Shown here: positions 56,041 to 56,106 of the stretch, in pieces
Position numbering within the stretch: position 1 is the stretch's first letter
Layout of the letters: every line of letters starts with the position of its first letter
Assembly (NCBI GenBank): GCA_964577805.1
Contig: CAZOAG010000002.1
Span: forward strand, 7,139 to 71,138
DNA: 64,000 nucleotides
DNA from: an uncultured Opitutales bacterium
GTDB lineage: Bacteria > Verrucomicrobiota > Verrucomicrobiia > Opitutales > JAIRKQ01
Direction: 5' to 3'
The notes under the pieces: model-generated
The model's input: only the letters and a program-made list of their open reading frames with translations
Database searches by the model: none
Told to the model about the DNA's origin: nothing
Translations under genes and position numbers: made by a program

Positions 56041-56106
56041 GACCGAGACCGAGACCGAGACCGAGACCGAGACCGAGACCGAGACCGAGACCGAGACCGA
56101 GACCGA
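56041..56106. repeat. perfect hexanucleotide microsatellite (GACCGA)x11
   Basis: 66 nt of uninterrupted GACCGA units, read directly from the sequence. Confidence 0.98.

Follow-up and report, generated by a model that had tools for sequence, protein, structure and literature searches.

Variable-number tandem repeat (VNTR) loci are known as typing markers in host-adapted bacteria, e.g., Mycobacterium leprae. In eukaryotes, the C9orf72 (GGGGCC)n hexanucleotide expansion yields poly-Pro-Arg (poly-PR) and other dipeptide repeats. The closest described bacterial loci are the intergenic 7-nt repeats of Xanthomonas (heptamer unit GGGAATC), which are flanked by the same genes across related species yet vary widely in both length and sequence (Rehm et al., 2015; PMC4692102). 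A second group comprises the phase-variable contingency loci of Haemophilus, Neisseria and Mycoplasma, which are formed by tetranucleotide and other repeats (PMC2651432; PMC3315296). Here, we analyzed a perfect (GACCGA)11 tract in a 64,000-nt stretch of contig CAZOAG010000002.1 (hereafter the window, i.e., the whole stretch at its full length). The tract lies in a gene-free spacer, with a type III secretion chaperone gene on one side and pgi, the gene for glucose-6-phosphate isomerase (PGI), on the other. We consider it probable that the tract is a non-coding hypervariable microsatellite, i.e., a VNTR-type locus, made and reshaped by replication slippage.

The tract resembles the intergenic repeats with 6-9-nt units, such as those of Xanthomonas, in several respects: perfect units of 6-7 nt stand head to tail between genes of the same orientation, the same genes flank the repeat in related lineages, and length and unit sequence both vary, slippage being the accepted mechanism. 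It differs from them in that it is a single locus in the 64-kb window rather than a genome-wide family, that the unit is not G-rich, and that even the length of the unit is not fixed among lineages but is either 6 or 7 nt. With the phase-variable contingency loci it shares a hypermutable, slippage-driven tandem repeat and a host-associated type of bacterium (as the type III secretion chaperone gene indicates). Unlike those loci, however, it lies outside any conserved open reading frame (ORF) and not between a -35 and a -10 element, it is found 451 nt upstream of a housekeeping gene, and lineages that lack the expansion have kept the same genes intact. The likeness to the C9orf72 expansion consists in a hexanucleotide repeat without stops in any frame, with Pro-Arg as the product of one of the frames; the present locus is bacterial, however, with another unit and only 11 copies, and its PR frame is lost in a relative (locus L084) at only ~1% divergence. 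Both hallmarks of bacterial simple sequence repeats (SSRs) and VNTRs were found, i.e., head-to-tail copies beyond chance and a tract that differs between strains while its flanks stay conserved. The locus is thus an ordinary one of a known type, and no new mechanism is indicated.

By Tandem Repeats Finder, positions 56041-56106 were reported as 11.0 copies of the unit GACCGA (period 6, 100% matches, score 132), exactly as an earlier description made from the letters alone (the sequence-only reading) had it and as direct reading of the sequence confirmed. A two-unit probe (GACCGAGACCGA, one mismatch or fewer) matched the window 10 times, always within the tract, where 0.04 matches were expected, and none of 100 shuffles equalled this count. 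Base composition would predict ~3e-30 hexamer tracts of 11 copies, whatever their unit, in 64 kb. The tract is therefore very unlikely to have arisen by chance, as had been claimed, and its unit, with 67% GC, does stand amid AT-rich DNA (36.6% GC over the 64-kb window). The only other SSRs of at least 12 nt with at least three units in the window were (TAT)4 and (ATTA)3.

No stop codon occurs within the tract in any of the six frames; the forward frames read DR, TE and PR, as described previously, and the reverse frames SV, RS and GL. The hairpin potential of the tract is close to nil (dG -1 and -2 kcal/mol), and its unit is not G-rich; neither quadruplex nor hairpin can form. The tract is bracketed by two copies of the 7-nt direct repeat TCGACCG (Table 1), with the junction sequences TTTAARTCGACCG on the left and ATCGACCRTCAAG on the right. 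The left copy together with the first tract unit gives CGACCGA, the 7-nt unit of relatives. At each hexamer junction the motif GAGACC arises, which is the BsaI/Eco31I recognition sequence GGTCTC as read from the opposite strand; this motif is absent from the 7-nt allele.

To compare the tract among relatives, their loci were recovered from public assemblies via exact-protein look-ups. The PGI cluster at 90% identity comprised three clades, i.e., A (the window type, with 0-8 amino-acid differences), B (locus L216) and C (the P0171 and P0172 types), which diverge from one another by 15-21% at the four-fold sites of pgi. In a joint alignment, six allele types were found at the orthologous site between the common junctions TTTAA(G/A)TCGACCG and ATCGACC(G/A)TCAAG. 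Lineage A, that of the window, carries (GACCGA)11. Lineage A' (L084, from SRR35641743) has the same hexamer at the left junction and one extra T in the T-run at 56025-56031, and lineage A'' (L228/L229, from SRR6824178/85) has (GACCGA)n and, after it, one additional unit, CGACGA. In lineage B (L216, GCA_964589405.1), a 100-N scaffold gap is followed by eight or more copies of the 7-nt unit ACGACCG. Lineage C1 (L219-L225, seven samples) shows a mosaic that reads ...GACCGAC GACCGA GACCGAC GACCGAC GACCGA GACAGA, and lineage C2 (L230/L232, two samples), whose contigs span the site, has an unexpanded 19-nt allele, GACCGA GACAGA CGACCGA.

Among the window, C1 and C2, the spacer on either side of the tract differs by no more than 3-5%, and the tract thus changes far faster than the DNA that surrounds it. 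Far from being invariant across strains, its structure differs between related lineages, and the very different structures of close lineages at a single site bear out the proposal that it is a slipped-strand mutation substrate. The accompanying argument that copy-number changes would keep the reading frame did not hold, however, as 7-nt units are present in relatives, on their own in L216 and together with 6-nt units in L219-L225. Lineages whose flanks differ by 3-5% carry clearly distinct tracts, and the locus can thus serve as a strain marker for this uncultured group.

The left-junction query had no match among metagenome contigs, and a PGI search of genome contigs yielded, among the matches listed, only relatives of 50-57% identity that lacked synteny. 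A (GACCGA)6 query against metagenome contigs matched more than 120 unrelated contigs (loci L093-L172), mostly of high GC (median 66%) and with tracts of 6 to 19 units; none of these aligned to the window beyond the repeat itself, save for a weak, unrelated similarity of L152 elsewhere. GACCGA is a recurrent microsatellite motif of GC-rich organisms, and these matches are uninformative for the present locus.

We also examined whether the tract lies in a coding sequence. The ORF at 56016-56159 translates as MILFFCLSRPRPRPRPRPRPRPRPRPRPRPNRPSRHSMVFYLCFKCL (47 aa), and it is the PR-frame ORF with an ATG that had been quoted from the sequence. The frame set by this ATG is not kept in relatives. In L084, which is ~1% diverged overall, one extra T between the ATG and the tract (T8 instead of T7) moves the ATG into the (TE)n frame, and in L216 and C1 each 7-nt unit shifts the frame that is read from it. 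With the unexpanded allele of L230, the ATG yields MVLFFCLSRPRQTTESTIKTFYGLLRVL, a peptide of 28 aa with its tail from another frame. Mismatches between the window and L216 by codon position were 24/28/29 to the left of the tract and 24/20/14 to the right, i.e., without 3-periodicity. Indels between lineages were of 1, 2, 4 and 5 nt and thus frameshifting, and substitutions around the tract changed almost all or most of the affected amino acids in those frames that are still open. A hydrophobic 74-aa ORF at 56269-56493 was likewise broken in relatives, through changes in T-run length, in the five-lineage alignment.

Given the stop codons that close all six frames of the spacer, the lack of codon periodicity, the frameshifting indels, the 7-nt units and the T7/T8 shift, coding at the tract appears to be excluded on comparative grounds, and the idea of a poly-PR peptide can, in our judgment, be dropped. 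The notion that the Pro-Arg ORF, for which a secreted product had been contemplated, is a gene thus failed on its ATG frame and on codon periodicity. The lack of an obvious Shine-Dalgarno (SD) sequence, which had been raised in this context, proved uninformative: an SD-like motif (AGGA, GGAG or GAGG within 20 nt upstream of the start) was present in only 4 of the 44 ORFs of at least 150 aa in the window.

Neither an RNA nor a mobile element was evident at the locus. Rfam gave no match at the gathering threshold, and a cut-off relaxed to E of 10 added nothing but noise; folding of 55500-56160 on both strands gave z-scores of -0.04 and +1.19, and RNAalifold on the right spacer of five lineages found compensatory changes in 0 of 110 predicted pairs. 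Neither plasmid nor phage collections contained a match to the spacer, viral contigs contained none to the 33-nt direct repeat that lies left of the tract (Table 1), and no other copy was present in the window.

The setting of the tract is a spacer under little apparent constraint. Between the window and L216, divergence was 16.8% and 16.4% in the spacer and 21% at the four-fold sites of pgi, and the spacer would thus seem to evolve close to the neutral rate, somewhat below the four-fold sites. In locus L217, whose PGI is 80% identical, the gene order from LpxK to pgi is the same, and the chaperone-pgi spacer is 388 nt long, with 29% GC and no repeats. Because this syntenic relative combines a plain AT-rich spacer of 388 nt with an intact pgi, the extra spacer DNA is dispensable. 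In L218 (PGI 85% identical), an ABC-transporter ATPase gene lies 172 nt upstream of pgi.

Taken together, these data suggest the following history, in which the slippage mechanism, the selective neutrality and the direction of change, i.e., expansion from a short allele rather than collapse to it, are what we infer. A short proto-repeat would have pre-existed at the site, bracketed by TCGACCG, and the allele of C2, in which a 6-nt unit, a variant unit and a 7-nt unit are already in place, may be its remnant. Slippage on this proto-repeat would then have amplified and homogenized a different register in each lineage, i.e., 6-nt in the window, 7-nt in B and a mosaic of both in C1, all within a lineage-specific, repeat-prone spacer that evolves at a near-neutral rate. 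If so, the allele set offers an unusually clear natural series of the birth and turnover of a bacterial microsatellite, from proto-repeat through 6/7-nt mosaic to two homogenized pure tracts.

Several points weigh against this account. Polymorphism was seen in unit structure and in the expanded or unexpanded state, not in n, as the k=31 contigs end inside the tract. The spacer to the left of the tract (55564-56040) has a GC of 0.41 vs 0.26 at four-fold sites; few substitutions could be polarized, and these showed no clear AT-ward bias. An old, purely neutral spacer would not be expected to be so GC-rich. The presence of an expanded tract in three clades at one site could mean that a long tract is favored, and in every lineage the tract is immediately preceded by a promoter-like extended -10.

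The features of the locus are collected in Table 1. The chaperone gene ends 790 nt before the tract; further upstream are the genes for RNase G, RodA/FtsW, a sodium:alanine symporter, phosphatidylserine decarboxylase, GspE and LpxK. For both the chaperone and PGI, homologues carry the NCBI names of proteins from Puniceicoccales (Verrucomicrobiota) metagenome-assembled genomes; the organism is an uncultured, AT-rich Puniceicoccales bacterium. The SRA runs were not met with in the literature searched, and that on Puniceicoccales with type III secretion systems yielded nothing relevant to the present organism. The center of the spacer (55500-56160) has a GC of 0.45 vs 0.37 in the window. Between the window and L216, divergence fell to 7.5% in the last 80 nt before pgi, vs ~16% elsewhere in the spacer. 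Because the alignments of the more distant relatives begin only at 56429 and 56507 and these last 80 nt diverge less, the actual promoter and leader of pgi are likely to lie proximal to the gene, in 56429-56556, i.e., more than 300 nt downstream of the tract.

Table 1. Features of the chaperone-pgi interval, with positions in the window.
Feature	Position	Strand	Basis and remarks
CesT-family type III secretion chaperone gene, upstream neighbor	54748-55251	+	PF05932, E 1.8e-15; homologues named type III secretion system chaperone, Puniceicoccales
Gene-free spacer from chaperone gene to pgi, 1305 nt	55252-56556		All six frames closed
Terminator-like hairpin followed by T-run, just 3' of chaperone gene	55289-55321	+	Comparable hairpin seen by eye in L217 spacer
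Two copies of 19-nt unit (CGGCGACCCTGAA...)	55517-55554		Repeat search
33-nt direct repeat, copy 1, head of ~342-nt duplicated unit	55564-55596		Repeat search
33-nt direct repeat, copy 2, 85% identical to copy 1	55906-55938		Repeat search
Promoter-like site (TCGAAA, 16-nt spacer, TATTAT, TG before -10)	55998-56025	+	Promoter scan; extended -10 at 56017-56025
ATG ORF, 47 aa, reads (PR)n; judged not to be a gene	56016-56159	+	Frame not kept in L084, L216, L219, L230
T7 homopolymer between ATG and tract	56025-56031		Sequence comparison; T8 in L084
TCGACCG, left-edge copy of bracketing 7-nt direct repeat	56039-56045		Left junction TTTAA(G/A)TCGACCG kept in L084, L216, L230, L232
Perfect (GACCGA)11 microsatellite	56041-56106		Direct reading and Tandem Repeats Finder; alleles hypervariable among lineages
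TCGACCG, right-edge copy of bracketing 7-nt direct repeat	56108-56114		Right junction ATCGACC(G/A)TCAAG kept in L216, L219, L228, L230
pgi-proximal block, still aligning with more distant relatives	56429-56556	+	L218 alignment starts at 56429, L217 alignment at 56507
pgi, glucose-6-phosphate isomerase, downstream neighbor	56557-58125	+	Domain search and homologues

The alternative that survives best, although we regard it as unlikely, is that the spacer including the tract is the wreck of a gene, e.g., for an effector or a repeat protein, in which the tract was once coding. Such an origin is compatible with present neutrality, and it would agree with a spacer of 1.3 kb whose GC exceeds that of typical intergenic DNA and of four-fold sites, as well as with the ~342-nt duplication within the spacer, which corresponds to 114 codons. 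Furthermore, a nearby gap in the window matches a 512-aa repeat-rich ORF in L216, so that such genes evidently come and go. Candidates for the lost gene did not, however, leave a trace: the next gene after that of the chaperone encodes, in other relatives, either a Na/H antiporter (a gene close to the spacer in size) or an alcohol dehydrogenase, but tblastn of these proteins against the spacer gave only noise (E of 0.15 or more). Pfam searches on ten stop-free segments likewise returned sub-threshold noise only, the plasmid and phage collections were, as noted, without a match, and the syntenic L217 has no gene at this position. Thus, the earlier suggestion that the tract is part of a decayed gene gained no support from tblastn, Pfam or phmmer, and what stands of it is a remote origin of the spacer as a rival account.

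A search of 1.8 billion representative proteins by phmmer with an 86-aa stop-free segment of the minus strand gave two hits (E 5e-10 and 1e-9), which we rejected as artefacts. Each represents one match of ~27 bits summed over 7-8 near-identical tandem units, and the two belong to unrelated repeat proteins.

Less probable still is a contingency locus of the phase- or rheostat-type, in which the length of the tract would tune a transcript from the promoter-like site at 55998-56025, which would be either an extended leader of pgi or a small RNA that lacks annotation. In its favor, this TG-extended site, whose 3' end stands 15 nt before the tract, occurs in all lineages, three clades have an expanded tract, and the GC of the spacer lies above that of neutral sites. 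The promoter scan of the region was, however, at background (7 sites vs 5.1 expected), and the site is conserved no better than the rest of the spacer. With respect to position, no conserved ORF holds the tract, and it does not lie at a core promoter. With respect to function, the downstream gene is the housekeeping gene pgi, with its own conserved block, rather than a surface, restriction-modification or virulence gene, and the chaperone gene lies upstream and is followed by a terminator-like hairpin. Moreover, pgi is intact both in C2, where the tract is unexpanded, and in L217, which lacks this spacer DNA, and neither RNA structure nor covariation was detected. The proposal that the tract tunes promoter or spacer geometry is therefore unlikely with respect to pgi, the conserved upstream block starting only at ~56429; at this distance the tract would appear to be too remote from that block to act on its core.

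We give slightly less credence again to a more far-reaching version, in which the tract and the nearby 19-nt and ~342-nt repeats form a maintained hypervariable module, the length and 6/7-nt register of which would set the level or stability of a pgi-ward transcript from 56017-56025. Only two observations hint at such a module, namely the puzzling GC-richness of the spacer and the fact that three clades have independent expansions. If true, it would amount to a stochastic switch on central carbon metabolism in an uncultured Puniceicoccales symbiont that bears a type III secretion system.

That the tract, or its length, was made by mis-assembly is very improbable. Short-read assemblies do break wherever the tract is expanded, L216 has its 100-N gap at the site, and the count of 11 copies rests on the window's own assembly. 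Nevertheless, the Logan contigs of SRR14160765, SRR14160763 and SRR22923249 match the window at 100% identity and break off exactly 30 nt into the repeat. They enter the tract from the left (SRR14160765 and SRR22923249) or from the right (SRR14160765 and SRR14160763), and SRR35641743 contigs also run 30 nt into a perfect hexamer tract; in SRR6824178/85, the contigs come in from the right, and their 30 nt of perfect repeat are followed by the variant unit. Logan assemblies use k = 31, and we infer that in the first three samples the tract forms a cycle in the assembly graph, with roughly seven units or more; these contigs therefore back the existence of the tract, not its exact length. In addition, the pgi of the window sits on a 229-kb NCBI contig, so that this assembly evidently bridged the tract. 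The tract itself accounts for the recurrent contig breaks and the scaffold gap in public short-read assemblies.

Finally, we attach next to no credence to the view that the tract encodes a repeat peptide or protein, i.e., (PR)n, (TE)n or (DR)n, possibly an effector secreted with the aid of the chaperone encoded beside it: although the tract is open in all frames with a 47-aa ATG ORF, the neighbor upstream encodes a type III secretion chaperone, and the rarity of SD-like motifs in this organism's genes means that their lack here is no argument against translation, the frame read from the ATG is PR in the window, TE in L084, rotating in L216 and L219 and that of an unrelated 28-aa peptide in L230, and the flanks show nearly exclusively amino-acid-changing substitutions, no codon periodicity and common frameshifting indels.

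The microsatellite, which we thus continue to regard as a product of slippage in non-coding DNA, is not the only repeat in the spacer. The 19-nt unit at 55517-55554 is present in two copies in the window, and Logan contigs of three strains with ~99% identity (L089, L091 and L092) end after exactly 30 nt of 19-nt periodic sequence, with the unit variants AAGT and AGAT. In these strains the unit is probably a second, expanded tandem repeat, i.e., a minisatellite. Of a tandem duplication of ~342 nt, the window retains only the two 33-nt heads; in L216, the duplication extends over 136 nt at 93% identity, with the copies 343 nt apart (L216 1-136 and 344-479). In L084, the two 33-nt heads are 97% identical, having apparently been homogenized by gene conversion that involved six linked changes. 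The contigs of L216 and L230 end inside the ~342-nt unit, and the T-runs of the spacer vary in length.

Divergence along the spacer was uneven. Between the window and L084, the ~420 nt to the left of the tract (55619-56040) were ~7% diverged, compared with 2.8% at the four-fold sites of the genes on either side and 0.5% for the segment 55252-55618. Part of this excess represents one conversion event, and the ~420-nt segment is a local hot spot of change or recombination beside the repeats. Between the window and clade C, the spacer differed by 4-5%, vs ~10% in the 3' half of pgi, and pgi (56557-58125) was a mosaic when compared with L219 and L230, each 150 nt containing 5-12 differences across the 5' half of the gene and 14-17 across the 3' half. 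The differing genealogies of spacer and pgi and the mosaic divergence of pgi indicate recombination between clades A and C.

Elsewhere in the window, a second stretch of ~1.4 kb, at 35026-36437, is without an ORF of at least 150 aa. The 512-aa protein encoded at 5532-7070 of L216 is rich in Q, S and E and internally repetitive, without a Pfam domain and without a tblastn match in the window. At the counterpart position in the window, 60878-62264, there is a 141-aa ORF (61235-61660) with a 12-nt repeat of KELS type at 61418-61492; this interval would seem to be a further locus of fast turnover, and it may be effector-like. Two paralogous genes of 264 and 260 aa, ~76% identical in DNA, lie on the minus strand at 58913-59707 and 60095-60877, with weak matches of the former to DUF481 and of the latter to a TorF-family putative porin. 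The Logan contig L001 ends within the 58913-59707 gene (window position 59606), possibly due to this paralogy.

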